A DNA stretch of 60,292 bases, the filler included, from Asterionella formosa (taxonomy: Eukaryota), in the NCBI GenBank assembly GCA_002256025.1. It is 7 parts of 7 records of this genome, joined end to end, with 100 filler letters (N's around TTAATTAATTAA, not from the genome) between each part and the next. Parts side by side here need not be neighbours in the genome. Positions count along the whole stretch, not along the records: positions 8,639 to 17,174 come from NKIB01012072.1; 6 more parts are not named here. The stretch is one strand, 5' to 3'. The notes beneath the pieces were generated by a model. It was not told the origin of the DNA and ran no database searches. It was given only the letters and a program-made list of their open reading frames with translations. Shown one piece after another: positions 6,025 to 40,742 of the stretch. Every line of letters starts with the position of its first letter. Position 1 is the stretch's first letter. The position numbers and the translations under genes were made by a program.

Positions 6025-7818
6025 CTAAGCTTGACAAAGCAAGATAAGTAGTATAACAGCAAATGCAATCCTGAGCCAATCTTCTGTCAACCACTGTAAC
6101 CATTGGTTTAAATTCGAACCGAGTTTACCAAAGATGTGGCTCCAATTGATGATGGGTTTTGCATTGAGAACGTACTGCTCGTATCGATGAATTATGGCTC
6201 GCAAGATCTCATCTTCGTCCCGAATCGCTTGCGGGTGAAAGAGCATATCAAAAACATACAATGTTGATCGTTTGGCGATTTCGCGGCACCTGTCTGGATT
6301 ACTTTGGGCCCATCGAACTTGGTCTGCGACATTTGACATGTTACTGTGGACAGGAATATAATGTACATAGGGTTCTAACAAATCCTCCATGACCCACGTA
6401 GCATAAGTGGCATTAGCAAGGAATACAACAGAATTACTGAACATCATCCAAAGGAGATTCATGGAAGAGTCCGCGCCTTCGAGTGACAACAAGTATTTGT
6501 GCTTCAGTATCGCGTCAATTGTCAAAGGTTTAGAATAAAAGGAATCAGGGAAAATTTTTTCTTGTTCTTGATCTGTATGCATGATGAATTTTGCGTCCAC
6601 AAATGGATGGCTTGCATAATTTTTCAGCAAGGCAATGGGTTGCTGCATTAAAGGTAATTCAGAACCAGTATTTGCCATTGCCGTTGGCACATCTGTGAGT
6701 AAATTGCCTCTCCAAACTAGCTTTCCTTCTTTCGTTTCAAACGGAACATCAAATTCTGGAACTTTTATAAGTGTTTCCATTAATGCATCTCGTTGCAAAG
6801 GCCATAAAATTGTCGTGTGCTGTGATCCACATTGAGAACAATCCTTGTCGTCATCAAGTCGTCGATGCCTTTGGTACTCCCAATCCCTTTCTGCCAATAA
6901 ATCGCGAACTCTACTGAATACTGGTGTCTGGACATTCCATTGATTCGTCGCCTTGGTTGTTCCAATTCCCAATGACCAAAGAAAGGCTTTGGTCGGGTAA
7001 TTTGATTGCTGCCATCGTCGGAAAATCATGGGCCACTCCATGATCCACCCTAGAAATCCTTCGTAGAATAAAATATTCCACATGCGAGTCCAAGTTGATA
7101 GTTGATCATTTGATTTAACCAGTAGGGCAGCATCAAGCAAGTCTCGTATCGAGCGCCGCACCATTGCCGACATGGGACTGTCGGCGTTGCACGCTTGTAT
7201 TAATGCATAATCGTCTGTCTTGGTGTATTTGCCTAAACTGCAACAAAGCAATAGATCTGGATTCATGTCGAGCGGATTGACAATGGGTTCGTAAGCCAAT
7301 CTCTCAGGATTCCAAGGTGAATCTTGCGTGGTAATCTTTAGCGCTTGGTATTTGTCATTCCAAAAAGGTCCAAATGGAGGCTGCGGCGGTTCACCCTGCA
7401 AGGCTGGTTCATACCAGTACCCCATATAATGCTTGATCCTTGTTTGTACGGAAGGAAACCGATTTGGCCTTCCCCTAAGATCAGATATCGAGGGAGAAAT
7501 GTAAGTAGGTGGCAATGGCCATTGTCTCCGTGATCTCCACGTGCGAAAGGAGGAAATGGCTTCGTTCATGCAACCGGCAGATGTAGGCGCCCCCAATAAC
7601 ATAACATGGAGCACAATAAGTACGAGAGCCACTCGTCTAGTGTGCGGCGAGTCCATTAACAGGTATGTAAATGATTGCCAGCGAAGTGACCGCCACGGAA
7701 ATTTCCGTCGTTCCTTGTCGTCATTGTCCGGATGAAGCGCCTTGTTGAGCGTCATTGTTGGATCCTGGCAGTCATCACAACAATCCAGCTTGCTGGTTGA
7801 ACGAACAGCACGACGCAT
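6025..7818 (-). CDS. Glycosyltransferase family 90 (CAP10/KDELC-like), membrane anchored
   Basis: Motifs KLVWRG, KHKYLLSLEG, LLWMMFSNSVVF and LEPYVHYIPV. Hydrophobic segments near both termini. First ATG taken at 7818; start uncertain. Confidence 0.85.
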   Translation of the reverse strand: MRRAVRSTSKLDCCDDCQDPTMTLNKALHPDNDDKERRKFPWRSLRWQSFTYLLMDSPHTRRVALVLIVLHVMLLGAPTSAGCMNEAISSFRTWRSRRQWPLPPTYISPSISDLRGRPNRFPSVQTRIKHYMGYWYEPALQGEPPQPPFGPFWNDKYQALKITTQDSPWNPERLAYEPIVNPLDMNPDLLLCCSLGKYTKTDDYALIQACNADSPMSAMVRRSIRDLLDAALLVKSNDQLSTWTRMWNILFYEGFLGWIMEWPMIFRRWQQSNYPTKAFLWSLGIGTTKATNQWNVQTPVFSRVRDLLAERDWEYQRHRRLDDDKDCSQCGSQHTTILWPLQRDALMETLIKVPEFDVPFETKEGKLVWRGNLLTDVPTAMANTGSELPLMQQPIALLKNYASHPFVDAKFIMHTDQEQEKIFPDSFYSKPLTIDAILKHKYLLSLEGADSSMNLLWMMFSNSVVFLANATYATWVMEDLLEPYVHYIPVHSNMSNVADQVRWAQSNPDRCREIAKRSTLYVFDMLFHPQAIRDEDEILRAIIHRYEQYVLNAKPIINWSHIFGKLGSNLNQWLQWLTEDWLRIAFAVILLILLCQA

Positions 7819-8638: not shown

Positions 8639-9333
8639 TCCGTTTTGGTTGTTATCATGACAAGACCATAGCAAGATTTTATGCCACAATCACAAACTTT
8701 CGAAGCAAATCAGGCAAACATTTGGAGCAACAGTGTCTGGTAGTACTACAAACAAGATAGAACTGAGCGATGGAATTGAGAAGGGTTCCCATTTTATTTG
8801 TGATGGAGGATATCATTCACGGCCTCAGCTGATAGTTCCCTACAAGCATCAGCTCGATGATTCCACAGAAGGGCCTTGGAGCGATAATCTGGAATCAGCA
8901 AGAAAAGACGTGGAATGTTTCTTTGGCATTCCTAAGAAGAGGTGCATGATCCTCAAGAATCCAATGCAGCTGGCTACACAACAGAAAGCAAATTAGGAAT
9001 CATGTTGTGATGACTTGCTGCTATATTCACAATAAAAAATATTTTTCTTTTATATGATGGGTATGATGATTGGAAAGAATCAATTGGTGATGATGATGTT
9101 GAAAATGCAGTTGATTGAGTGAATGATGAAGATGATCTCCCAAGAGGAACAAATGAGTGTGAAGACATGAGCATCACATGGCTCAAGCTTTAGAAAACAA
9201 TTACACAGAGTATGCTGTTGACACTATTGATGCTCAGACTTTAAGTGACAAGTAAGCATATATAAATAGGAGAGCGAATTTAGTTCATTACTGCAGACAG
9301 GCAATCGAAAGAAATGAAATTGTGTGGAGCTAA
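8639..9333 (+). mobile_element. PIF/Harbinger DDE transposase fragment (pseudogene, 5' part lost in the gap)
   Basis: HFICDGGYH...WSDNLESARKDVECFFGIPKKR matches the DxGY and R..VE..FG..K.R motifs of the DDE_Tnp_4/plant transposon nuclease family. Stops follow. Confidence 0.85.
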
Positions 9334-9353
9334 TTAAATATATAATTATTAAA

Positions 9354-10230
9354 TCATTCACAAATGCTACCAGTATTTTCATTGTCCTTCTCCTCTAATG
9401 ATGAGTTTCTGTCATCAGGAGAGCATACAACATCAGCATTCAATGTTTTATTGATGAAAGTTAATTCATCTGAATGGCCAGCCAGTACTGGAAATGCTAC
9501 TGTTTCCCACCTCGAAAGCAGTTCCAGTACTACTAGGAACAGATGCAGGAAAGGCATTAGCAATGTGAATCTGAAGGAGGCGTTCCCAACTAGGTAAGTT
9601 TGCAGACTTGGCCAATGTGATTGCATTCATTTGATTCTTCACTTTAATATTGTCTGCCAATGTCCTCATTGTAGCATTAGCTCTCATCATTGCAGCTCTA
9701 TTCCTCTCATTAACAAGATCCTCACTTGTTGATCTCTTTGATACCAATGCCTGTCTCTTTGCATTCCTAGCCTTATGCCTCTGCTAATTATGGCTCTTGA
9801 GTTCATATTGTTTCTTGTTTTAGTAATTGACTTGTTCTTGATAAACACCCAAACATGTGGAAGGACCCTTTTGATTGCAGCTTTGTCAGAATCTTGTGTT
9901 TCACCACTCACCAACTTATAGTGTGGTTGCCACTGATTGATAAACTGAGACTTCAGGTCTCTGAATACAGCCCAAATACTTAACCCTTGTGGCATCATCA
10001 AAGTAGTGAAGTTTGCATAAAGCAAAGAATGGCGAACCACTGCCTCCATGGATTCCTAACATTCAATCCAGATTCTTCTTCATTTGATTTGTCTAGTATG
10101 GCCTTGAATGCACCCACTCTTTGGTGGAATTCTGTCTCTATTTGCTTGCAGATGTCCTCCAAGTTAGTCACTTTGCGAGATGAAATTGAAACACCAGACT
10201 CGAAAATAATCCAAGACGAAAAGCTCTGAT
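9354..10230 (-). pseudogene. Probable accessory (second) ORF of the Harbinger element, convergent with the transposase
   Basis: Frameshifted chain of ORFs 9687-10049, 9466-9747 and 9354-9626, tail-to-tail with the transposase. This is the typical two-gene Harbinger layout. Confidence 0.55.
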
Positions 10231-10903
10231 GATTTTCTTTTCTCTGTCATTGAGAAGCTTGTTGCATGCTTCGATTTGAACTGAATGCCTTGCTTGAGTA
10301 GCAAGGATATCCATTGGTTCTTGGATACTAGGCTGTTGATGATATTGTTATGTGAGTAAATCATTTCTATGTAAATGACAATGGCAGCAAATGAACAAAT
10401 AATGTTGGCACACCAATAGCACATACCAGTGTTGATGCAGCCTGTAGAGTAGCTGTGTCAGGATCCATGGGCATCAAGGTATGTTAATAAATCAAGAAGT
10501 CAGCATACTAGAAAGGATCCAAAAGGTTGGTTGTTGGTGTAAAACATCATCGTCAACAGAATCATTAATTTAATATTGAGGCATTGCCGACAGCAATAGA
10601 ACTCTCAAGATTTATCATCGTCAGTTTAACCATCTGACGGAATTCTGGCGCGGTAAGGAACAGCATTTTCCAAGAAGTTTCTAACAACCCCCAAAGTTTA
10701 ATTCCTTCGCGGTGGGAAACGGCGTTTTCTGGGGTCGGAGGATCACTTCCAGGTTCGAATTCCTTGGGAATTGAAAAATTTAGCGGTTTTCCCGGTAAGT
10801 AAGGGGGACGAAAAATCAGTTTCCTAATTCTATGTAGAGACAAAAAGGCGAGATCCCCTCTGCTTTAACTTGATCAAAAATTCACATTATTGTTCATCTC
10901 ACT

Positions 10904-13900
10904 ATGAGATTCTTGTTCCTTTGCCGTTGCATTATTATGACCAACTCAATCGCTATAGAGTTCATTTGGGCTAGGTTGGTCGATGATGATATGCGACAGC
11001 ATCATCATGCTCGTCACTTTAGGAATCGAATCCTAGGCGACGCGACAACTTCAAGCAACATTGTTACAATCGAAGGATCTGAAACTCCAATGTTTTTTTG
11101 CAATGATGACGTTTGTCGAACTAAAGTCATGACTCAACAAAATGATATTGTATCCAAACTCCAAGCGCTTCATCCCGCCGCACGGTTGGTGGCTCAAGTT
11201 CAGAAACTTGCTAATGTTGTCTTCGTAGACCTGGGTACTACTACTAGTACTAGAACATCTTACAAAATCAAAAACATTGCTGGGATAAAACGCATTCAAA
11301 AACATCAAACATATACTACTTTACTCAATAGGACAGTGGAATACATTCAAGGGAATCAGGCACATGAAACATTTTGTACGACTGGCAAAGGAGTTAAAAT
11401 AGCAATTCTTGATGACGGGATTGACTATACCCATGAAGCTATAGGTGGGTCTGGAACAATACATGCGTATCAACAAGCTTACGGAAGGTATGATGGATCG
11501 GAGAGAAATGCAAGAAGAGATGGCTTCTTCCCTACCAAGACTGTGTACGAAGGCATAGATTTTCTCGGTGATCTATTCAGAACAACTAAGGGCCTACAAC
11601 CTCAAGTTGACAATGATCCCATTAATCAACCACATGGTCATGGTACTTTTGTTGCGTCCAACATTCTTGCTGTAGCCCCTGATGCCAAACTCTTGTTGGC
11701 ACGAGTCTGTTCATCAATGGGTTATTGTCCAGAATTCGCCGTCTTGCAAGGGATGGAGTTCGCCATGGACCCAAACGGTGATGGTGACTTTGCAGATAAA
11801 GTCGATTTCATTAACCTTTCATTGGGCCTCCCTGCAATACCGTCGTACTACGACATGGTGTCCTATACCATTGAACAAGCCTTTAAGCTAGGGACCCTCA
11901 CGGTAGTTTCGTTTGGAAACACTGGTAATGTACCCTTCCTAGCAGGACCCCAAGCAAGTTCTCCCAACGCATTGGCGGTGGGAGCAACGATGCACCCTGA
12001 CTTTTGGGATCAAGTTGATGGTCACCAATACGTAGAATGGTATTCAACTCGTGGTCCAGGATCTCAGTTTCAGCTAAAACCTGACATTTCGGCGCCCTCT
12101 GGCTCCTTCGCCGCAGTAGCCGGAACAGGAAATCAATACGCCCGAGCCTTCGGGACGTCATTTTCCGCTCCAATCACAACGGGAGCTGCAGCACTGGTCA
12201 AGGAACGGTGTTTTACATGTAGTCCTTTTGCCATCAAAGCCATTCTTATGAATAATGTGGAAACCAACATTGGTGATCAAACTACCATGAATATTACAAT
12301 TAAGAAAGCTCCGTTGTCGTCGGTAGGAAATGGGGAGCTTCGAATAGGGACATCTCTTGACGCCGATTTTTGGGCCTTTTCACCTGATGAGGGAGATGTA
12401 CAGCCATCGATCAGTTTGGGACTTTTCAATGTGGCAGGGGATATTCTGGTACTTCGTCGGATCAGAATTGTAAGCTTGACGAATGCGACCGAAACGATTA
12501 AGATTTCAGTCAATTTTCGCGATCCATCGGATGCTGCGCTCGGTGCTCTTGAAGTGAACATCCCACAGTCAAATGTGACCCTTTCCAGCTGCAGCGCTGA
12601 TACCGAGATTCTAGTTCAATTTAAAATTGTTGCTACGAATGTTCCCAACAATTTCCTGGAATCTGCCAGTAGCCCTGAAAGCCTCGACAATAATGAATTT
12701 GATGGTCACATCGTCTTGGTGTCGACGAAAACATTCAAGTCGATACGAATTCCCTTTTACACAATACTCCGAAAAGCCTCGAATGTAACTGTTACACCAA
12801 ATGCACTACCAAATGGCAGTACACCATTCCAAGCGAACATTTCAGTTGAGAATACTGGTGCTGGTGTAGCACAAATCGATGTATATCAACTCCTTGGAAG
12901 GACCAAGGACGACCCTGAGGCAGAGTATGGAACCCCAGAATTGCCTTCTGACATTCGCGCAATAGGTTATCGGACGATCCATGCTAGTTATTCCAATTGC
13001 AGCTATGTTGTGGAGTTCGTGTTCAATCTGTGGGAGAGACCTCGTCGAATCATTCCCTTCTACCCCTTCATTGCCTTTGTTAATGCTTCCACAAACGAAA
13101 CCATTTCGTTCCTTATCAGCCGAGAGTCCACGCATTTCGAGTTTGAAGTCGTGGTAGTGAACAAGCTTGATGGTAGTCAACCAGCCTGTACTGGATTCTC
13201 CCTCATCAACTCTCCGGGATCCGCCAATATCGTCATGCGAGGGTGTGGTGAGCAATTGGGACTGAAAGAAAATCAAAACCTTTCTGTTAAATTTGGTGTA
13301 AGGGACATATCTAAAATAGGTGGTGATGATCTTCTTGAATTACTTGGTCCATTGAAAATAGAGTATCCACACCCAGCCATTTCGGCGCACTCGTACGATA
13401 TCCGTCCTGGAGCAACACTGGACAACCTCGAAGTTACTAACCGAAACAACAATAACATCAGTCAGCCCATGGGAATCTTGCTAGTAACAAACGCATACAG
13501 AAGTACCAACAGTACAGGAGCATCTGTCAAAGAGCAGGAAGGAATCCTGCTCCTCCGGAATGGTCTGAGCAACTACAAAGAAATCACCGTTGACAAACTT
13601 CTATACCCACAAGCTAATGACACCGGCGGTCCGCAATGTTTGTGGCGTAGCGAGATGTGCTTGTTCCCGACGCTGGCACCAACCCTATATCCTGCCCCGT
13701 CGAGTACTGAAACCCCTACCAAGTCGCCAACAGCAATTCTCACAGAGTTTCCCTCTGCGACATCCGAACCAAGTATCCCAACATATACATATAGTCCAAC
13801 TTTTGCACCTGACTGTCCACCCCATAAATTCATGAGTCAAAGTGTTCCCACCGGAAGCCCCAGCCTCTCGAATGGTCCCTCGGGAGTACCAGCATACGTA

Positions 13901-14422
13901 AGTCCATCGAATAGTCCATCCAGCAGCCCAACGCCGCTTTCCATGCCACCATATATCACTGCATCGAATGCACCATCTACTCCCCTATCCTTGATCAAAT
14001 CGCCCTCATCGGAGTCTTCATACATCCCTTCATCGAATAGTCCATCCGCTCCACCATCCGTGAGCCCAATGCCGTCGACCATGCCATCATACATCATTTC
14101 ATCGAATAGTCCATCCACTCCCCAATTCGTGAGCCCAATGCCGTCAGTCATGCCATCATACATTACTCCATCGACTCGGCCATCAACTCCCCGATCCTTT
14201 TTCCCATCGCCCTTGTCCCAGCCATCATCCAGTTCATCAAGTAGTCCATCCACTCCCGGACTGTTAAGCCCAGCCTCAGCGAAGAATACACCAATGCCCT
14301 TTGCATTCCCCGCTCTCCCTGGAACAACTGATAGTACGTCAGGTAGTGCAACTTGGAAGGGAAAGAATATCATTCTTGCGATTGTGGTTTCATTGACAGT
14401 AAAAATCCTAGTTTTGTACTAG
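10904..14422 (+). CDS. Subtilisin-like S8 serine protease (Vpr-like) with P/S/T-rich stalk and hydrophobic C-terminus (possible GPI signal)
   Basis: Catalytic triad ILDDGIDYTH / HGTFVAS / GTSFSAP, oxyanion Asn in SFGNTG, plus TRGPG and KPDISAP. PSxSPS repeats and C-terminal IILAIVVSLTVKILVLY. Intronless, 1172 aa. Confidence 0.93.
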   Translation: MRFLFLCRCIIMTNSIAIEFIWARLVDDDMRQHHHARHFRNRILGDATTSSNIVTIEGSETPMFFCNDDVCRTKVMTQQNDIVSKLQALHPAARLVAQVQKLANVVFVDLGTTTSTRTSYKIKNIAGIKRIQKHQTYTTLLNRTVEYIQGNQAHETFCTTGKGVKIAILDDGIDYTHEAIGGSGTIHAYQQAYGRYDGSERNARRDGFFPTKTVYEGIDFLGDLFRTTKGLQPQVDNDPINQPHGHGTFVASNILAVAPDAKLLLARVCSSMGYCPEFAVLQGMEFAMDPNGDGDFADKVDFINLSLGLPAIPSYYDMVSYTIEQAFKLGTLTVVSFGNTGNVPFLAGPQASSPNALAVGATMHPDFWDQVDGHQYVEWYSTRGPGSQFQLKPDISAPSGSFAAVAGTGNQYARAFGTSFSAPITTGAAALVKERCFTCSPFAIKAILMNNVETNIGDQTTMNITIKKAPLSSVGNGELRIGTSLDADFWAFSPDEGDVQPSISLGLFNVAGDILVLRRIRIVSLTNATETIKISVNFRDPSDAALGALEVNIPQSNVTLSSCSADTEILVQFKIVATNVPNNFLESASSPESLDNNEFDGHIVLVSTKTFKSIRIPFYTILRKASNVTVTPNALPNGSTPFQANISVENTGAGVAQIDVYQLLGRTKDDPEAEYGTPELPSDIRAIGYRTIHASYSNCSYVVEFVFNLWERPRRIIPFYPFIAFVNASTNETISFLISRESTHFEFEVVVVNKLDGSQPACTGFSLINSPGSANIVMRGCGEQLGLKENQNLSVKFGVRDISKIGGDDLLELLGPLKIEYPHPAISAHSYDIRPGATLDNLEVTNRNNNNISQPMGILLVTNAYRSTNSTGASVKEQEGILLLRNGLSNYKEITVDKLLYPQANDTGGPQCLWRSEMCLFPTLAPTLYPAPSSTETPTKSPTAILTEFPSATSEPSIPTYTYSPTFAPDCPPHKFMSQSVPTGSPSLSNGPSGVPAYVSPSNSPSSSPTPLSMPPYITASNAPSTPLSLIKSPSSESSYIPSSNSPSAPPSVSPMPSTMPSYIISSNSPSTPQFVSPMPSVMPSYITPSTRPSTPRSFFPSPLSQPSSSSSSSPSTPGLLSPASAKNTPMPFAFPALPGTTDSTSGSATWKGKNIILAIVVSLTVKILVLY

Positions 14423-14443
14423 AATCGACTCACTTTGGATCAT

Positions 14444-16375
14444 TTAGGTTCGAAAATGTATATTATGCTCTATCGAAACCCTGCTGAGTTGTAAAGCTAT
14501 TCGCTTTCCCTCTATCGGATCCACGGGAATTGAAGGTTCCGATGATAGTCGGGCGATATCATCGAGACATTTTTGAGTATTTTCTGGTATTTCCCCGTTT
14601 TCGCCCATAACAATAATAAATGGTTCAGGAACAACCAACCCAGCTTCAAGTATCGCTGGTGCCTCCTTGAGTACTGCAGAAAGGTCATAGTATTTAAGTT
14701 CTTTTTCTCTTCGAATCATATCAGGCTTGTTTGCTACAGTTACTTCAACAATAACTAATGACTTTCCTATCACACAGCACAGATCTGGAGCTCTCATCTT
14801 CTTGCTCAACTTCTTAATGTCTGTCGTCCACTTCCACTTGTACAGGGGCTGATCCCGTATGACTTCCACTGCTCCTCGACTGATCATCCATTCGGAAATT
14901 GTTCGAAGGATAGCATTGTGTCTCTTTCTTACTAAAACAGATTTATGATAAGACTCTTGTCGTCTTCTAGCATTCCAACCAAGCCCTCCAGGCTTGACGT
15001 GAGTATCGCCAGAAAAGGATGACTTCAGTTCGCTTTTTATGGCTAATTGTCCACAGTCTTCTGTTGGAACAAAGAGAGCACCGATGGGCAAATGATCCGA
15101 AGGAAATCCTTTGTCAAACTGTGGCAATCCTGATAAGATTAATTTTGTGCGATCGGGTTTTGCTGGATCCACCGTTGCTAAGACGCATTCCACTCGAAGC
15201 GGAGAAGGCAGGGCCATACCAATACCAGAGTCCCTTGCTTGTGCATGGACTCGTCTTAACTTTCGTTTGCTCTCCCATATACCACCGGCAATTGCTGCGT
15301 TGTTATTTTTGGCAGCTGATAATGATTTGACCATGGCTGCGGGACCACCATTAGCGTACAGTATATGGTCCATGCAGCCAGGACCACGACCGTGTAAAGA
15401 CACCGTAATTGGAGCAGCTTCGTCTCGAAGGTTATCTGCATAGATGTCCTTAAATCTATGACTGTGTCTCATTCTGGCTGCTTCATCTTTTGAAATTTTC
15501 GTCTTGTAGTTTCTATCTTTCACTGTCCCATGCATACTGCTGCCCGTTTTGAGTAAATGGACTGTCGGACTGTCCTGATCACAGTTGAAATCCCCTCCAA
15601 TGATAATTGCGCCATCCAAGGGAGTACATCGAATTGGACTCTCACATCCGTCTACCTTTCGAATTGTCGTTGCCATTGTCTTTAATCTCCCTTCAATGTC
15701 AGCAGGCTTGGCTGGCAAATGAACATTTCCAACACAAAATGTGGATCCCGAATCCAATTCTTCTAGCTGAACCACCATACCTCGGCGGAAGCCCTCCGAT
15801 GATAGAAGCGCATGTTTCTTGGATCTCCACGCTACGGCAAGACCAACTACATCCCCTGGTCGATTGGGATGTAGGGCTGTCCATACGTAGTCATCGTACC
15901 CCTCCAAGCCTCCAACCATTGGCTCTTGCAGAAGTTGCTTCAATCTAGGTTCAAACAGGTCGCCTCCTTCGACCTCTTGAAGAAGTAGTACATCGGCATT
16001 CGCGGCTTTAGCCATGGCAATCGAATTTGGTATTCGATCCTTTCGATCTTGTTCCTTTTTTGACTCTTCCTCGGCGTGTCCGATCCAATGATAGGCCGGT
16101 GCCAACATATTGAAGGAACATACACTTAATTCCCCAGTCTCTGTCGTGCGAAACGAAGTACCTGGTTTGATAATGTTTGCTACTACCGGTAGTACCTTGT
16201 TATTTTTCTCATCGTGGTCAATCGATGGAAGGACAGATGTGGATAATAGTGAAACAGATACTAAGGACGGTATCACGGTTCTGGAATGGATGACTGTTAC
16301 TTGATCAGTGAAGCTCTCGCATGGAAGCACAATTAGAAAGCACGCCAATACCAGCGCAGGAAAGTGTCTTTGCAT
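14444..16375 (-). CDS. EEP-superfamily (CCR4/PDE12/Angel-like) phosphodiesterase with predicted plastid presequence and C-terminal PD-(D/E)XK-like domain
   Basis: EEP motifs SFNMLA, LQEV, NVHL, GDFNC, DHILY and PSDHLPI. N-terminus MQRHFPALVLACFLIVLPCES-F. C-terminus RHN...PDL...VEVTV...EKELKY. Confidence 0.88.
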   Translation of the reverse strand: MQRHFPALVLACFLIVLPCESFTDQVTVIHSRTVIPSLVSVSLLSTSVLPSIDHDEKNNKVLPVVANIIKPGTSFRTTETGELSVCSFNMLAPAYHWIGHAEEESKKEQDRKDRIPNSIAMAKAANADVLLLQEVEGGDLFEPRLKQLLQEPMVGGLEGYDDYVWTALHPNRPGDVVGLAVAWRSKKHALLSSEGFRRGMVVQLEELDSGSTFCVGNVHLPAKPADIEGRLKTMATTIRKVDGCESPIRCTPLDGAIIIGGDFNCDQDSPTVHLLKTGSSMHGTVKDRNYKTKISKDEAARMRHSHRFKDIYADNLRDEAAPITVSLHGRGPGCMDHILYANGGPAAMVKSLSAAKNNNAAIAGGIWESKRKLRRVHAQARDSGIGMALPSPLRVECVLATVDPAKPDRTKLILSGLPQFDKGFPSDHLPIGALFVPTEDCGQLAIKSELKSSFSGDTHVKPGGLGWNARRRQESYHKSVLVRKRHNAILRTISEWMISRGAVEVIRDQPLYKWKWTTDIKKLSKKMRAPDLCCVIGKSLVIVEVTVANKPDMIRREKELKYYDLSAVLKEAPAILEAGLVVPEPFIIVMGENGEIPENTQKCLDDIARLSSEPSIPVDPIEGKRIALQLSRVSIEHNIHFRT

Positions 16376-17274
16376 ATTTATGTATAGAGATTTCTTAAGG
16401 AACAAGTAGGAAGGGGATCGATTGTGTCAACAAGAGACTGTTTTCGTGTGTAATATAATCGCGATGTATGGGTTTCCGATTACTCGCCGTCGCCATCAGG
16501 GATTATCACCGCTATCACGTACCTTGTACATACCAAGTAATAGTCAGTGCTAGTAAATGGCATCTAAACCATCCGTGACATATTACCGGTATGCACCCTG
16601 GTACCATACATACCGGTACTCCTTGTCGCATATATAGCTTAATAAAGTAAAGGAATCCACAACAAGCATTGTTAGCTACAGCTATAGCTATTGCTTGCCG
16701 CTTTGCTCGCCAAACTCAATTCTTAGTAAGAGGTTGGGTTTGTGAATAAAGTTAACGAACATACAGTTCATGTTTAATACTGGTAAACTACCTGGTACTG
16801 GCACTCGGAGTACCTGGTACTACCGTGAGCAAAACTCAAAAAGGAACTCCAACAAAATTAATTGGAGCCATCACCATTGGACACCACATTTGCAAAAAAA
16901 TGATTAATTCAACCTCATTGTTTCAACAAATGAGGGTCACATGATCTCTAGAATTTATTTTTTGAATAAAAGGTATGTTGTTGAACTTAACACACATTTG
17001 TCTCATCATGGAGGGAATGCCCCTTGTACCAATCTTCTTTGAGATACAGCTGGTGTTGTGAGTAACACTTATTGTTGCTAAGATGCATAGCAAATCGACC
17101 GAAACCTCCATATCCAAATGTAATACACCGTGCCTCCATGCCGAGGTATAAGTCTGCAAAGACAGGATAAAAGTNNNNNNNNNNNNNNNNNNNNNNNNNN
17201 NNNNNNNNNNNNNNNNNNTTAATTAATTAANNNNNNNNNNNNNNNNNNNNNNNNNNNNNNNNNNNNNNNNNNNN

Positions 17275-18505
17275 TTCGCAAAAAAGATGGAAGTGTCAGA
17301 TTTTCGTGAATTAAATAAATTCATCAATCGCATTATTTATTATTTACTTCGAATACAACTAGTCTCCCGAAACGTGCTGGATATGCATTTTTCACCAAAT
17401 TGGATGTGTCTTTGCAATATTACTATACATTTGCTTTAGATGTGAAGAAGAAAAAATGTGTTCGCTATTTCCACTCCATTTGGTTAATATAAATATTTAC
17501 GTCTCTCTATGGGGGTAAAACAATCATCTGACATTGCCAAAGAAACCACTATGGAACAGGTTCTTTGTGATTTAGATGAAGTGGAAATTTATATTGATGA
17601 TGTGGGTTGTCTTTCTATGAATTTTGAAGATCACTTACATTCGTTGGATACTATTTTACATCGCTTACAGGCAAATGATTTCACAATTAATTCATCAATG
17701 TGTGAATTTGCAGTCCAAGAGACAGATTGGTTAGGCTCTTGGCTAACTCCTAATGGTCTGAAACCTTGGTCTAAAAAGATCCTAGCATTGAACAATATGT
17801 CTTCACCTACCAATCTCAAACAAGTCAGATCTTTTCTTGGTGTGGTTAGCTACCATCGAGACATATTTCGTCGACGCTCTCATGTTCTCGGATAGCTCAC
17901 GGATTTAATTGGAACTGGTCCATTTGTCTTGTTACCTATACATGAACAAGCTTTTTTCAGAAATGAAAGCATTATTACTTGCAGATACACTCGTGCGTTA
18001 TTCTGATCATAAACTTTCCTCTCCATATTTTTACTGATGCTTCTGGTTATCAATTAGTGTCAGTCATTATGCAAAACGAACTCCCGGTTGTTTATTATTC
18101 TCGCGAATTATCTGCGGCTCAGAAAAATTATTCCCACCATTGAAAAAGAGTCACTTTCTGTCGTAGAAACTTTATAAAAAATTTGCTCTGTGTTATTGGG
18201 TGCAGCTCTACATGTTCACACTCATCATCGTTATCTTATTTATACTACCTATCACACTAAATGTGTTCTACAGTGGAGGCTTTATATTGAAGAATATCAT
18301 GCTACTTTTCACCTTCTGAAGGGGACTGATAATGCTATAGCAGATTCCATCTCTTGCCTCCCAAGACTTGAGTCTTTTGTGGGGGATAATATTCTGCTGA
18401 CATCTTCAGCATCAAAATCCACTTGTACTTTCTCAATTGAATTAGATGATAAACCTCCGCTTACCTGTTTCCTCAATCATCAAGTTTTGGCAGACAATAG
18501 TTAAA
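17275..18505 (+). mobile_element. Ty3/Gypsy RT-RNase H relic
   Basis: FTKLDVS, YIDDV, KQVRSFLG, FTDASGYQL, TIEKE and KGTDNAIADSIS, with many stops and frameshifts. Confidence 0.92.
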
Positions 18506-18775
18506 CTTTTTCTTTAGAACAGCACATGAATTTTGGATTGACCCCAATAAATTCCGAAAAACGTAAATCATATTTATGAGGTACTGTACAATTATGATGC
18601 ACAGGTTTTGGCATTCGTGTTTACAGCAGCGATTCCCGCTCCAGCTATCATCTTGCCATTTCGGTACTTCTATGTAATATTTAGGCTCTAAATAATTTAT
18701 TAAGTAATTTTTATTTAGGGGCAATATGGGGCTCATAAAATTTTTCGGCAATAAAATTGCCGATTTTAGCAAGAC

Positions 18776-19274
18776 AGCCAGAATAATGGTAATATGCATA
18801 GAGATGATACAACAAGCATAAAACACATGAGAATGATTGTAACATGCAACATCAATGAAATTGAACATGATGTTTGGAGCAACCAAAGTATGAAATGCGA
18901 TGTAATAAGTAGCATCAAATAAGAAATAGAAATTTTTTGTTGGGGATAGAAATGAAGTAAAAAATAGGAGTTTCAATTGAGATGTATGCATTGTGTCATT
19001 ATACTACTTACACAGGCAACATTGACTTTCCGTTACCACACAGTCAAAGACCGAAATCAGAAGAAAAAAAGCAGAAACCAATTTAGACCTGCATCGTCAT
19101 GTAGTGTAGATGATCTGGTTGCTGTAACCATTCACATCGCTGTAGTAGCCTGACACCAGTAGCAGTCTTTCCGCCACAGCCATTCCTCCCACCAAACAAC
19201 CCTGATCAGTCCATTCCATTCTGAGCGAGCATGATTGCCAGGCTGCTCCAGCACTATCGACTCCCTCTAGCTGA
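18776..19274. repeat. Dispersed repeat; inverted copy at 52944-53452
   Basis: ACAACAAGCATAAAACACATGAGAATGATTGTAACATGCAACATCAATGAAA and CCAGGCTGCTCCAG..CCCTCTAGCTGA are reverse complements of sequence in the 52.9-53.45 kb copy. Confidence 0.92.
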
Positions 19275-20207
19275 NNNNNNNNNNNNNNNNNNNNNNNNNN
19301 NNNNNNNNNNNNNNNNNNNNNNNNNNNNNNNNNNNNNNNNNNNNNNNNNNNNNNNNNNNNNNNNNNNNNNNNNNNNNNNNNNNNNNNNNNNNNNNNNNNN
19401 NNNNNNNNNNNNNNNNNNNNNNNNNNNNNNNNNNNNNNNNNNNNNNNNNNNNNNNNNNNNNNNNNNNNNNNNNNNNNNNNNNNNNNNNNNNNNNNNNNNN
19501 NNNNNNNNNNNNNNNNNNNNNNNNNNNNNNNNNNNNNNNNNNNNNNNNNNNNNNNNNNNNNNNNNNNNNNNNNNNNNNNNNNNNNNNNNNNNNNNNNNNN
19601 NNNNNNNNNNNNNNNNNNNNNNNNNNNNNNNNNNNNNNNNNNNNNNNNNNNNNNNNNNNNNNNNNNNNNNNNNNNNNNNNNNNNNNNNNNNNNNNNNNNN
19701 NNNNNNNNNNNNNNNNNNNNNNNNNNNNNNNNNNNNNNNNNNNNNNNNNNNNNNNNNNNNNNNNNNNNNNNNNNNNNNNNNNNNNNNNNNNNNNNNNNNN
19801 NNNNNNNNNNNNNNNNNNNNNNNNNNNNNNNNNNNNNNNNNNNNNNNNNNNNNNNNNNNNNNNNNNNNNNNNNNNNNNNNNNNNNNNNNNNNNNNNNNNN
19901 NNNNNNNNNNNNNNNNNNNNNNNNNNNNNNNNNNNNNNNNNNNNNNNNNNNNNNNNNNNNNNNNNNNNNNNNNNNNNNNNNNNNNNNNNNNNNNNNNNNN
20001 NNNNNNNNNNNNNNNNNNNNNNNNNNNNNNNNNNNNNNNNNNNNNNNNNNNNNNNNNNNNNNNNNNNNNNNNNNNNNNNNNNNNNNNNNNNNNNNNNNNN
20101 NNNNNNNNNNNNNNNNNNNNNNNGTTAGATGGCTATTATTTGGGTTACTAATCGATAGTCTTTGTGATCACCATCCTTCAGTACCTATTTCTCTCTTGAA
20201 AGTCACA

Positions 20208-20723
20208 ATGAAATCTCTTATTTGGACTGGCGTCTTTATCTTGCTGGTGGTGGAACTTGTCGTGACGTTCATCTTGGTTATTCCCGTTCCCCGGAAGATC
20301 CGGAATAAGATCGCTCGCTATATAGCAAAGTTTGATTTGGGCGGCAAAATCGGCCAAGCATCAATGTTTCTAATGATTGCCCTCTTTGGTGCATTGGCCG
20401 AGAGCATCATGACAGTGCGGGCCCTTCAGGAGCGAGAACACCCAACCGGTGCCACCATGACTACTTCTGTCGAACAAGAACGAATCTTTCATGACTTGGA
20501 CAAGCAGCGGATCTTCCGAGCCGAGCGAAACATGTACTTGGCAGGGTTCACTTTGACTCTGCTTTTTGTTATTGCGAGAATTTCGAAATTGATGGAAGAA
20601 AGTGTGGAAATGGAGGAGGAACACGAACGGCTTCTGAAGTTGATTCCATCGAAAGAGTCGGTCGAGACTAGAGGCAATTCAATTGAAATGAGGCCATTAT
20701 TGAGTCAAAAGAAAAAGGAGTAA
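20208..20723 (+). CDS. BAP29/BAP31-family ER membrane protein
   Basis: Three hydrophobic helices, the FRAERNMYLAGFTL signature, a coiled coil and C-terminal KKKE (KKxx ER-retrieval signal). Confidence 0.9.
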   Translation: MKSLIWTGVFILLVVELVVTFILVIPVPRKIRNKIARYIAKFDLGGKIGQASMFLMIALFGALAESIMTVRALQEREHPTGATMTTSVEQERIFHDLDKQRIFRAERNMYLAGFTLTLLFVIARISKLMEESVEMEEEHERLLKLIPSKESVETRGNSIEMRPLLSQKKKE

Positions 20724-20833
20724 ATTATGGATGTAAACTGGTGTTGATGTGGATATTGCATTGAAATAGCCATTACTACAACTAAGTCGTTTGTCACTGT
20801 CAAAGATCGAATCACCTAGATACCCATTCAAAG

Positions 20834-21598
20834 TTACGCCCTGCACTTGGTAACTCCGGCTCGGAGCGCATCTATAACACCCTGCCGATCATTGGATCCA
20901 AAAATTGCACTCGCCGCTACGATGACATTCGCGCCGGCTTCCGCCGCTTGATCAATTGTGTCAGGGGACAATCCACCATCGACCTCAATGTCCAGATCAG
21001 GGAACGCAGCACGCAACAGCTTTACCTTTTGCATTTGACACGGCATAAATGCTTGTCCAGAAAATCCAGGCTCCACTGTCATGATCAATACGAGATCCAA
21101 GTGCGGGACGTACTCAAAGAGGCTTTCAACGGGAGTGGCGGGTTTGACAACCATTCCCACACGCATACCAGCGTCGCGAATCATCTGGATCATGGCCCTC
21201 GGGCCACCTTCAGGCAATTCTGATTCAATGTGAAAGGTGAACGACGAGCACCCCGCTTTTTTCAGTGGTTCCACCCAAAAGGCGGGCTTCGACACCATTA
21301 AGTGACAATCAATAAAGGCCTACCAGTACGTCGATAAGATGGTACGAGTGAGTGGAGACAGTTCATGTCGAAGTCAGACGTCGTTGCGAAATGTGATGCA
21401 GCCCGCACTTACATTCTTATGAGCTTGACGCAAGGATGCAACCACGGGAGGACCGAACGAAAGGTTGGGAACAAAGTGCCCGTCCATAATATCCATGTGA
21501 AGCCAATCAGCTCCCATATCAAGCATCTGCTGCGCATCAGCTGCGAGATTCGCCAAATCACAAGACAGGAGGGAGGGAGCAATCAATGCAGCAGGCAT
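20834..21598 (-). CDS. RPE: Ribulose-phosphate 3-epimerase; exons 21598-21413 and 21319-20834
   Basis: [40 protein letters not shown] and IEVDGG. A 93-nt phase-0 GT..AG intron at 21412-21320 restores [11 protein letters not shown]. An upstream in-frame ATG exists at 21706. Confidence 0.97.
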
Positions 21599-25908: not shown

Positions 25909-26915
25909 CGAAGTGCCAACGAACTATTATGGGAATTGATGGAGTCATGACTGATACAGCCTCCCTTCATGTCTTGCTTAATTCATTGATTGATCGTTCA
26001 AGGTATCCAACAGCTGGGATCCAGTTTCGATACACATTGGTTACTGAAGATGCAGTTGTAGCCGGAAACCAGATGATGGCACGTTGGGTCATGTCCACTC
26101 TGAATGCGACTCAATGTGGTGCTAGGATGGAAGTTGCCAAGCAAGGTATGCTTTGTGCAAAATTCAATTCGTCGCACAAGATTATTGGGCTAGAATTAAT
26201 GTTTGACGTCATGGCCTTTATGTTGCAGCTTAAGCAAGCATCTGGATCCGAGTTGTTTTCTGTTGTGCCAAACACTGTTCAAACTTGTCAACGGAGCTTT
26301 GACGTACCAATGGTAATGACGCTGGCCGAACGACCATATACAATTGTTCAGGTGAATAAGTTATGGGAGGAAATGACAGGTTACTTCGCAGAAGACGTAG
26401 TTGGCAAGGCTTCCTGTAGAATCCTTCAAGGTCAGGACACTGATCACCAAGCAGTCGAATCCTTAATGAATGAGATTCGGTACAAGCGACCCACCTCTGC
26501 TATGGTCTTGCATTACAATCGTCAAGGCAAGCGCTTTCGCAACTTCCTCAGCTTTTTCCCATTATCAACTGACTCAAAGATTACCCACTATGTAGCGCTT
26601 ACAGCTCATGTCGATAACATGAACTCCATTGCCTGTGCGGCGCCTCCTGCCATTCAGGGACAGCAACAGTCTCAAGTTGCTCAGCATGTCCTCCCAAAGC
26701 CATCAGTGGCCCCGCCCCCCACTGTGCTGCTTCCTGGAATTCCTGGGCATGCCCAAATTACATCACTTGGTGTTCCTCAACTAATTGCTACTTCTCAAGG
26801 CGGAGCACCACCAGTGATGACGTTTTACCATCCCCAACCTATCCCAAGTATGCCTGGGATGCTGCCATCTTCAATTCCAGCAGTGGTTATCTCAGCATCA
26901 GCTATTCAGCAGTGA
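25909..26915 (+). CDS. 3' part of a PAS (LOV-like) domain protein, probably diatom bZIP-PAS type; 5' part in the gap
   Basis: IVQVNKLWEEMTGY..EDVVGKASCRILQGQDTD...HYNRQGKRFRN, then a P/Q-rich tail. The frame is open from the gap. The bZIP domain is not visible here. Confidence 0.8.
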
Positions 26916-40671: not shown

Positions 40672-40742
40672 TGCACCAACCGGGAATCGAACCCAGGGCA
40701 AACGCTTGGAAGGCGTTTATGTTACCACTACACCATTGGTGC
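40672..40742 (-). tRNA. tRNA-Gly (anticodon TCC)
   Basis: GCACCAA acceptor stem, D-arm TAGTGG, anticodon arm AACGC-CTTCCAA-GCGTT, T-loop GTTCGATTC. A T-run terminator lies at 40646-40650. Confidence 0.98.

Follow-up and report, generated by a model that had tools for sequence, protein, structure and literature searches.

A diatom gene that joins a CCR4/Angel-like EEP domain to a nuclease domain related to the restriction-like endonuclease of R2 retrotransposons

The gene described here lies on the minus strand of a 60,292-nucleotide stretch of joined sequence from the diatom Asterionella formosa (NCBI GenBank assembly GCA_002256025.1; hereafter, the window), inside the part at positions 8,639 to 17,174 (NKIB01012072.1). 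Its product carries, from N- to C-terminus, a hydrophobic leader ending in CES-F, a CCR4-family EEP domain and a C-terminal domain of about 180 amino acids without a Pfam match (Table 1). As judged from profile comparisons and a predicted structure, this C-terminal domain (the tail) is a PD-(D/E)XK nuclease domain homologous to the restriction-like endonuclease (RLE) of R2 retrotransposons. An EEP domain and an RLE-like tail are present in one protein, and the interpretation offered in a first-pass annotation of the window, that an RLE-like nuclease has been fused to a CCR4/Angel-like enzyme, is supported. The gene is a conserved nuclear host gene of diatoms and not part of a transposon, and we think it probable that it encodes a plastid-targeted nuclease with two active sites, which would combine RNA cleavage with trimming or healing of the resulting 3' ends.

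Gene and protein organisation

The open reading frame (ORF) runs without interruption through positions 14444..16405 of the minus strand, giving 653 amino acids when counted from a TTG codon and 643 when counted from the first ATG at position 16375. A protein of 643 amino acids that is 100% identical to the window protein (P0001) is contained in the public protein collection (P0003). The span to which the first-pass annotation was attached, 14444-14935, corresponds to codons 481-643 plus the stop codon. All the strings quoted in that annotation were located in the translation, namely FPSDHLPIGALF (residues 424-435), RKRHNAIL (from residue 483), RAPDLCCVIGKSLVIVEVTV (528-547) and REKELKYYDL (556-565). 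Its statement that the protein lacks both a CCHC knuckle and a reverse transcriptase (RT) also holds: residues 436-470, between the end of the EEP domain and the tail, contain one Cys and one His, and no RT family was found in a Pfam scan at E<=1.

Table 1. Features of the studied gene and of its surroundings, with positions given along the whole window
Feature	Position	Strand	Basis or remark
Whole gene (P0001)	14444..16375	-	single uninterrupted ORF, 643 codons + stop
Signal-peptide-like leader MQRHFPALVLACFLIVLPCES, residues 1-21	16313..16375	-	hydrophobicity
F22 at putative +1 (16310-16312), then Ser/Thr-rich transit-peptide-like stretch, residues 22-60	16196..16312	-	approximate end
EEP domain (CCR4/Angel/PDE12/Nocturnin kind), residues 78-440, with poorly conserved insert 345-395	15056..16144	-	PF03372 + profile
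Variable linker, residues 441-463	14987..15055	-	low identity
RLE-like PD-(D/E)XK nuclease domain (predicted), residues 464-642	14450..14986	-	profile, Foldseek, VIA-align
RH(N/D) motif R483-K-R485-H486-N487, helix 1	14915..14929	-	aligned with RHN of R2 chains 9nl2, 9dou, 9nl3
(K/R)PD motif R528-A-P530-D531, just before strand 2	14783..14794	-	21/21; D531 ~ R2Bm Asp996
E544-V-T546, strand 3: predicted second acidic metal ligand, Thr at the place of the canonical Lys	14738..14746	-	E544 ~ R2Bm Asp1009
E557-K558-E-L-K561-Y562-Y-D564, helix 2: relocated Lys + K..KY.D	14684..14707	-	K558 ~ R2Bm Lys1026
GT90 glycosyltransferase	6025-7818	-	PF05686, 5.9e-15
S8 subtilase, 1172 aa, long Ser/Pro-rich C-terminal region, hydrophobic end	10904-14422	+	PF00082, E 5.8e-34
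PAS-domain protein	25929-26915	+	PF13426, 8.2e-7
tRNA-Gly(TCC)	40672-40742	-	ARAGORN

Identity of the C-terminal domain

Searches with the single sequence of the tail were nearly blank. No Pfam family was matched (the only entry returned was CRM1_repeat_2 at E 0.15), and phmmer against the PDB gave one marginal match, the Hantaan virus endonuclease (5ize, E 0.84), so that the relationship to R2 is visible only with a profile. The profile used was that of alignment A2, which holds 27 sequences: the tail from the window, twelve orthologue tail stretches and fourteen short or stand-alone proteins. Thirteen PDB sequences were matched by it at E<=10, consisting of five R2 proteins (9nl2, 4.2e-5; 9dou, 1.3e-3; 8gh6, 1.8e-3; 9nl3, 5.4e-3; 8ibw, 0.17) and eight bunyaviral L proteins, the best of which was again 5ize (E 0.014). 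The R2 RLE aligned over profile positions 49-142, including RHN, compared with positions 95-130 for 5ize. In the R2 alignments RHN falls on RHN, KPD on RAPD, DVTV on EVTV and EKV..YKDL on EK..KY.DL.

Counted along the profile alignment, residues D996, D1009 and K1026 of R2Bm fall on D531, E544 and K558 of the diatom protein. The three R2Bm residues have been named as catalytic, with the lysine situated on a helix (PMC10499050), and the R2Bm RLE has been described as having an RH motif in helix 1, a PD, a D/E and a non-canonical lysine in the second helix (PMC4838377). The same features recur in the diatom tail when it is compared with the R2 proteins of known structure (R2Bm, R2Tg and turtle R2; 8gh6, 9dou and 9nl2): RH(N/D) lies in helix 1, (K/R)PD is followed by a second acidic residue 12 residues on, and the lysine has moved to helix 2 within an EK..KY motif. 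With 12 residues between D531 and E544, the order and spacing of the motifs are those claimed in the first-pass annotation, whose rule allowed 12 to 14. The tail retains the full H-PD-E-K set (H486, D531, E544 and K558).

An AlphaFold2 model of the tail, made on alignment A2, was of high confidence (pLDDT 93.3, pTM 0.86). In the numbering of the model, helices are predicted at 10-45, 97-107, 144-157 and 168-188 and strands at 49-53, 78-82, 85-94 and 132-137; D77 (D531 of the protein) is placed just before strand 2, E90 (E544) in strand 3 and K104 (K558) in helix 2. Foldseek comparison of the model with the PDB gave nine matches at E<=0.001, the top seven of which were all R2 and the other two Ebinur Lake virus. 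The best R2 match had an E value of 9.2e-8, with a query TM of 0.62, a root-mean-square deviation of 3.3 A and 23% identity over 167 columns. R2 proteins were also ranked first by VIA-align. Among the viral models of BFVD, the top matches were bunyaviral L proteins (best 2.1e-6). The nearest ESM Atlas clusters (0.95-0.96) were composed of short animal proteins, one cluster being auto-named 'Reverse transcriptase', and in a weaker cluster (0.86) zf-RVT was present in 31% of the members; both serve as leads only. The PD-(D/E)XK fold suggested for the tail by the first-pass annotation is therefore borne out by a confident model, with R2 RLE domains as the top matches by structure and by profile. 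On this evidence the nearest known relatives of the tail are R2 RLE domains, followed by the cap-snatching endonucleases of bunyaviruses. R2 is the sole RLE type in the PDB and the comparison covers it alone, the RLEs of R4, CRE, NeSL, HERO, Utopia and Dualen standing outside it.

There are also clear differences from R2. The diatom protein has no CCHC knuckle, no RT and no N-terminal DNA-binding zinc finger/Myb region, the identity between the domains is only 18-24%, and the diatom domain follows an organelle-type presequence and an EEP domain in the product of a conserved host gene. As the CCHC knuckle and a linked RT are missing, we class the tail as RLE-like, occurring here in a new context, and not as a retroelement.

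The succession PD, 12 residues, (D/E)VTV, (R)EK..KY (window 14684-14794, minus strand) is common to the R2 RLE, the Hantaan virus endonuclease and the algal family. The algal profile matches both the R2 and the bunyaviral group, and it may help in asking whether the RLEs of long interspersed nuclear elements (LINEs) and the bunyaviral endonucleases are specifically related.

Conservation of the tail

When a collection of 5.8 billion proteins was searched with residues 455-643, 21 of the 1080 candidates reached E<=0.001, and PF03372 was precomputed for 18 of the 21. These form alignment A1, in which R483, R485, H486, R528, P530, D531, E544, K558, K561, Y562 and D564 are identical in all 21 proteins and N487, T546 and G594 in 20. 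In A2 the pattern R-x-R-H, R..D, E, K..KY.D and one glycine is invariant (27/27). The RH(N/D), PD, E and K..KY residues on which the first-pass annotation had built its reading are accordingly unchanged among the orthologues. Mean pairwise identity is 0.51-0.54 for the tail and 0.56 for the EEP domain (A1), values that match and place the tail under the same constraint as the EEP domain; the corresponding figures are 0.18 for the linker (residues 441-470) and 0.23 for the presequence. Two of the 21 proteins are MMETSP transcriptome ORFs labelled type:complete. In related diatoms the transcript does not end before the tail, as the type:complete ORFs P0011, P0012 and P0099 carry both domains in-frame and one mRNA hence spans them.

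The EEP domain

In a Pfam scan of the whole protein the only family found was PF03372 (residues 118-343; E 1.4e-10, 41.8 bits against a cut-off of 24.5). A single-sequence phmmer search of the PDB with the EEP part returned nothing at E<=0.01, and the link to ANGEL2 needed a profile. With the A1 profile, ANGEL2 was the best match (6rvz, 4.6e-8), followed by yeast Ccr4 (2.1e-4), PDE12 (~0.009) and Nocturnin (0.039); a chloroplast AP endonuclease was matched weakly (E 0.37), and no LINE AP endonuclease (APE) or TDP2 chain appeared at E<=1. The ANGEL2 alignment spans all the EEP catalytic motifs of the diatom protein. The catalytic residues are kept wherever the aligned sequences extend over them, with N89 present in 18/18 and E134 in 19/19 of such sequences, and H219, D262, N264, D336, D427 and H428 in 21/21. 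One orthologue bears the source name 'Angel homolog [Seminavis robusta]'. By its sequence the domain belongs to the CCR4/Angel branch, nearer to it than to EEPs of the APE/TDP2 type, with ANGEL2 as the nearest solved relative, and the label 'CCR4/PDE12/Angel-like' given in the first-pass annotation was right. On its sequence, the domain may be a deadenylase, a cyclic phosphatase or an NADP(H) phosphatase.

The diatom protein resembles ANGEL2, CCR4, PDE12 and Nocturnin in its PF03372 domain and in the alignment with ANGEL2 across the catalytic motifs, and differs from them by the additional C-terminal nuclease domain and by an insert of about 50 amino acids. Within this insert a conserved Arg-rich stretch was seen (residues 369-383; window 15227-15271, minus strand) with the consensus GKRKARR..A..R, in which R374 is invariant and R371, R375 and R381 are conserved in at least 90% of sequences. 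Similar Arg-rich C-termini are present in the stand-alone nuclease proteins P0070, P0073, P0074, P0079 and P0081. The stretch may be a nucleic-acid-binding arm.

The N-terminal presequence

Plastid presequences of diatoms have been described as a signal peptide with an ASAFAP-type cleavage motif, carrying F (or W/Y/L) at +1, followed by a transit peptide that is hydroxyl-rich, acid-poor and of net positive charge (PMC4329603). The leader of the diatom protein has a hydrophobic core beginning at residue 8 (best 9-residue Kyte-Doolittle mean 3.49, by a crude script of our own). The junction in P0001 reads VLPCES-F, and the next 25 residues include nine S/T, one acidic and one basic residue. A crude rule of our own, requiring a 9-residue Kyte-Doolittle mean of >=2.0 within the first 45 residues and then a small residue followed by F/W/Y, is fitted by 27 of 36 long fused relatives. 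Of the signal-peptide claim in the first-pass annotation, the leader and the CES-F junction are present; import into the plastid is a prediction from a reading of the CES-F motif and from the crude script. The presequence pattern is suggestive of the plastid-targeted type, although its charge does not clearly agree with that type.

Distribution and history of the gene

Among 1.84 billion representative proteins, 64 matched the tail at E<=0.001 (phmmer). Two of these were judged spurious and not counted, namely P0069, a repeat protein of 1340 amino acids, and P0078, which is of low complexity. P0069 is made of tandem repeats of about 50 amino acids and was matched seven times by tail residues 97-143 (E 9.4e-12). 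It contains nothing credible as a nuclease domain and may represent a fragment enlarged by repeats or a wrongly called ORF. Of the credible representative matches of at least 550 amino acids, 26 of 27 have PF03372. The remaining one, P0020, has no precomputed PF03372, yet its source name is that of an EEP-family hydrolase and a GDxN motif is present. When 59 relatives were scanned, PF03372 was found in 23, the others being N-terminally incomplete pieces or stand-alone forms, and an RT family was found in none (0/59). Profile searches of the 5.8-billion-protein collection, made for proteins of similar and of greater length, likewise returned no RT protein and only EEP-fused, fragmentary and stand-alone members, which is weak evidence given the word filter and the huge size of the database.

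The fused forms with a species name are all from diatoms (Amphora coffeiformis, Epithemia clementina, Seminavis robusta, Thalassionema frauenfeldii and Thalassiothrix antarctica). The stand-alone proteins are 209-270 amino acids long and carry the nuclease domain behind a hydrophobic or Ala/Arg-rich leader, often with an Arg-rich tail after it; the haptophyte Pavlovales sp. CCMP2436 has one such form. We made a quick, unrooted maximum-likelihood tree from the core domains of 76 of the 98 proteins that match the A2 profile. Those omitted were P0002 (a tail piece of P0001), P0003, eleven further cluster-mates or fragments, and rows with low coverage of the core. The eight stand-alone rows all lie on the same side of one branch (SH-aLRT 91), so that a single fusion or a single fission is enough to account for the two forms. 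The lack of an RT in the 59 relatives, together with the ordinary character of the other genes of the window (a GT90 glycosyltransferase, an S8 subtilase and a PAS protein), identifies the gene as one belonging to the host.

Proposed role and alternatives

In the role that we consider probable, the presequence would take the protein into the plastid, where the metal-dependent RLE-like domain, through its predicted H-PD-E-K site, would cut plastid RNA internally. The tethered Angel/CCR4-like domain would then trim or heal the new 3' end, either as a 3'-5' exonuclease or by removal of a 2',3'-cyclic phosphate or 3'-phosphate. The nuclease module would represent an independent unit, occurring alone behind leaders of its own in other algae, and its fusion to the EEP domain could have taken place just once, on the diatom side. 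We lean towards RNA over DNA as the substrate by a fair margin, because the EEP domain is related to RNA-end enzymes and the tail has RNA endonucleases as its second-closest relatives. Cap-snatching endonucleases cut RNA, and this fits an EEP partner of the RNA type.

The fusion may be viewed as a one-polypeptide analogue of a pairing known from animal mitochondria, that of a FASTK-family protein of PD-(D/E)XK fold with ANGEL2. When mitochondrial RNA is processed in a non-canonical way, ANGEL2 clears the 3' phosphates that result, and in Drosophila DmAngel has been co-precipitated with a FASTK homologue; a PD-(D/E)XK fold has been proposed for the RAP domain of this homologue (PMC9525292). Both cases would pair an organellar RNA-processing protein of this fold with an Angel-type EEP, although the mitochondrial partners are two separate proteins. 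Moreover, the diatom tail keeps the full metal-binding set and has no Pfam RAP match: RAP is absent from the lists for the tail and for all 27 A2 members at E<=10, where the HMMER filters drop most matches above ~0.1.

Several points weigh against the proposed role in plastid RNA processing. The R2 RLE, the nearest relative of the tail, is a DNA nickase, and a DNA substrate is hence possible. The transit-like stretch has a net charge of about zero, whereas a net positive charge is typical (PMC4329603). FASTKD5 has been reported to be metal-independent (PMC12242768), while the intact H-PD-E-K site of the diatom protein predicts metal-dependent cleavage leaving a 3'-OH, for which reason the analogy with FASTK and ANGEL2 is one of architecture and not necessarily of chemistry. 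Lastly, a chloroplast member of the CCR4 family in Arabidopsis has been reported to be an NADP(H) phosphatase (PMC12557515), so RNA is not necessarily the substrate of the EEP domain.

A protein of the same architecture could instead act on DNA, in plastid (or nuclear) repair or recombination, with the RLE-like domain nicking or resolving branched or damaged DNA and the EEP domain cleaning blocked 3' ends (e.g. a 3'-phosphate). In sequence as in structure the tail comes nearest to the R2 RLE domains, which cut DNA, the EEP superfamily includes DNA repair enzymes, and the R2 RLE has been likened to Hjc/Hje (PMC4838377). We nevertheless regard a DNA substrate as unlikely, since the EEP profile matches RNA-end enzymes (4.6e-8 to 0.04) well ahead of the chloroplast AP endonuclease, and finds no chain of the LINE APE or TDP2 kind at E<=1, and since the second-closest relatives of the tail cut RNA.

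A different question is whether the nuclease module is an endogenised cap-snatching endonuclease from a bunya-like negative-strand RNA virus, as opposed to one derived from a retroelement or an old cellular lineage. Cap-snatching endonucleases (those of Bunyavirales L and of orthomyxovirus PA-N) share with the tail a PD...E...K site, a lysine on a helix and a histidine in helix 1, and the local match to the Hantaan virus endonuclease (PD-x12-EVTV-...-REK.LKY; 5ize) is striking. Furthermore, the TIGR04202 model (capSnatchArena) matches the family at E 6.9e-4, PF15518 is weakly matched in 9/27 and PF21991 in 5/27 of the A2 members (best E 0.002-0.012), the top BFVD matches are bunyaviral, and two members are labelled 'cap-snatching RNA endonuclease' by JGI. 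However, none of the three viral family models (TIGR04202, PF21991 and PF15518) scores above its curated cut-off, the TIGR04202 match reaching 19.9 bits against 40. The viral enzymes are weaker than R2 on every measure, R2 scoring higher by structure and also by profile, there over a longer stretch that includes RHN. Their endonuclease domain is, in addition, N-terminal in a viral L/PA polymerase, whereas the diatom domain is C-terminal in a cellular EEP protein. We consider a viral source improbable.

That the gene is no host enzyme but the relic of a two-endonuclease retrotransposon of the Dualen type (APE-type EEP plus RLE) after loss of the RT is rejected as very improbable: the tail is RLE-like and the order EEP ... 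RLE in one polypeptide is that of Dualen/RandI, a non-LTR group encoding APE and RLE, but in that group the EEP is of APE type and the RT stands between the two (PMC4640811), while the diatom EEP is of CCR4/Angel kind, neither RT nor CCHC is present in the gene and no RT in the 59 relatives, purifying selection across diatoms is equally strong on the two domains, no catalytic residue has been lost, the organelle-type presequence is conserved and the neighbouring genes are ordinary. Neither multi-copy insertions with target-site features nor a remnant of an RT between the EEP and RLE-like domains was seen in any relative.

Origin and significance

In describing the tail as domesticated, the first-pass annotation assumed that it descends from a retroelement. 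On a comparison limited to R2 RLEs, the module may have been captured from a LINE or from a bunya-like virus, or may be an old sister lineage. No description of an EEP + RLE-like architecture was found in the literature searched, nor was any retrotransposon RLE domesticated as an organellar enzyme, most subscription journals being outside the reach of that search.

A broader scheme can be put forward tentatively, and we hold it to be possible but doubtful. In it, algae whose complex plastids are red-derived would possess a host nuclease lineage of the RLE/cap-snatching clade that is imported into the organelle, and in diatoms this nuclease would have been joined to an Angel-like phosphodiesterase. 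The product would be a one-polypeptide plastid counterpart of mitochondrial FASTK-ANGEL2 that cleaves the precursor RNAs of the plastid and finishes their 3' ends.

Retrotransposons are the setting in which RLE-type endonucleases are known. The RLE fold is also found in Prp8 (PMC10499050). A conserved and catalytically intact RLE-like domain in a host gene family with an organelle-type presequence would give a cellular reference for the origin of LINE endonucleases and for their link to cap-snatching. If the module came from a LINE, the gene would be a case in which the RLE endonuclease of a retrotransposon was domesticated to serve in an organelle; if it is an old sister lineage, it would form a cellular bridge from the RLEs of LINEs to the endonucleases with which negative-strand RNA viruses carry out cap-snatching. 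The gene would also name a candidate nuclease for nucleic-acid processing in the diatom plastid. By a Rosetta-stone argument, the natural fusion would support the pairing of a PD-(D/E)XK nuclease with Angel-type end processing that has been proposed for animal mitochondria.

Other features of the window

An AT-rich stretch was seen at 18001-20000, with a GC content of 0.238 compared with ~0.40 elsewhere. It overlaps an ORF of 306 amino acids (19231-20151, plus strand) without a Pfam family, and no tandem repeats were found in 16000-21000. The S8 subtilase gene is convergent with the studied gene, its stop ending 21 bases before the stop codon of the latter (14444-14446). With convergent stop codons at this distance, the 3' untranslated regions of the two genes must overlap.

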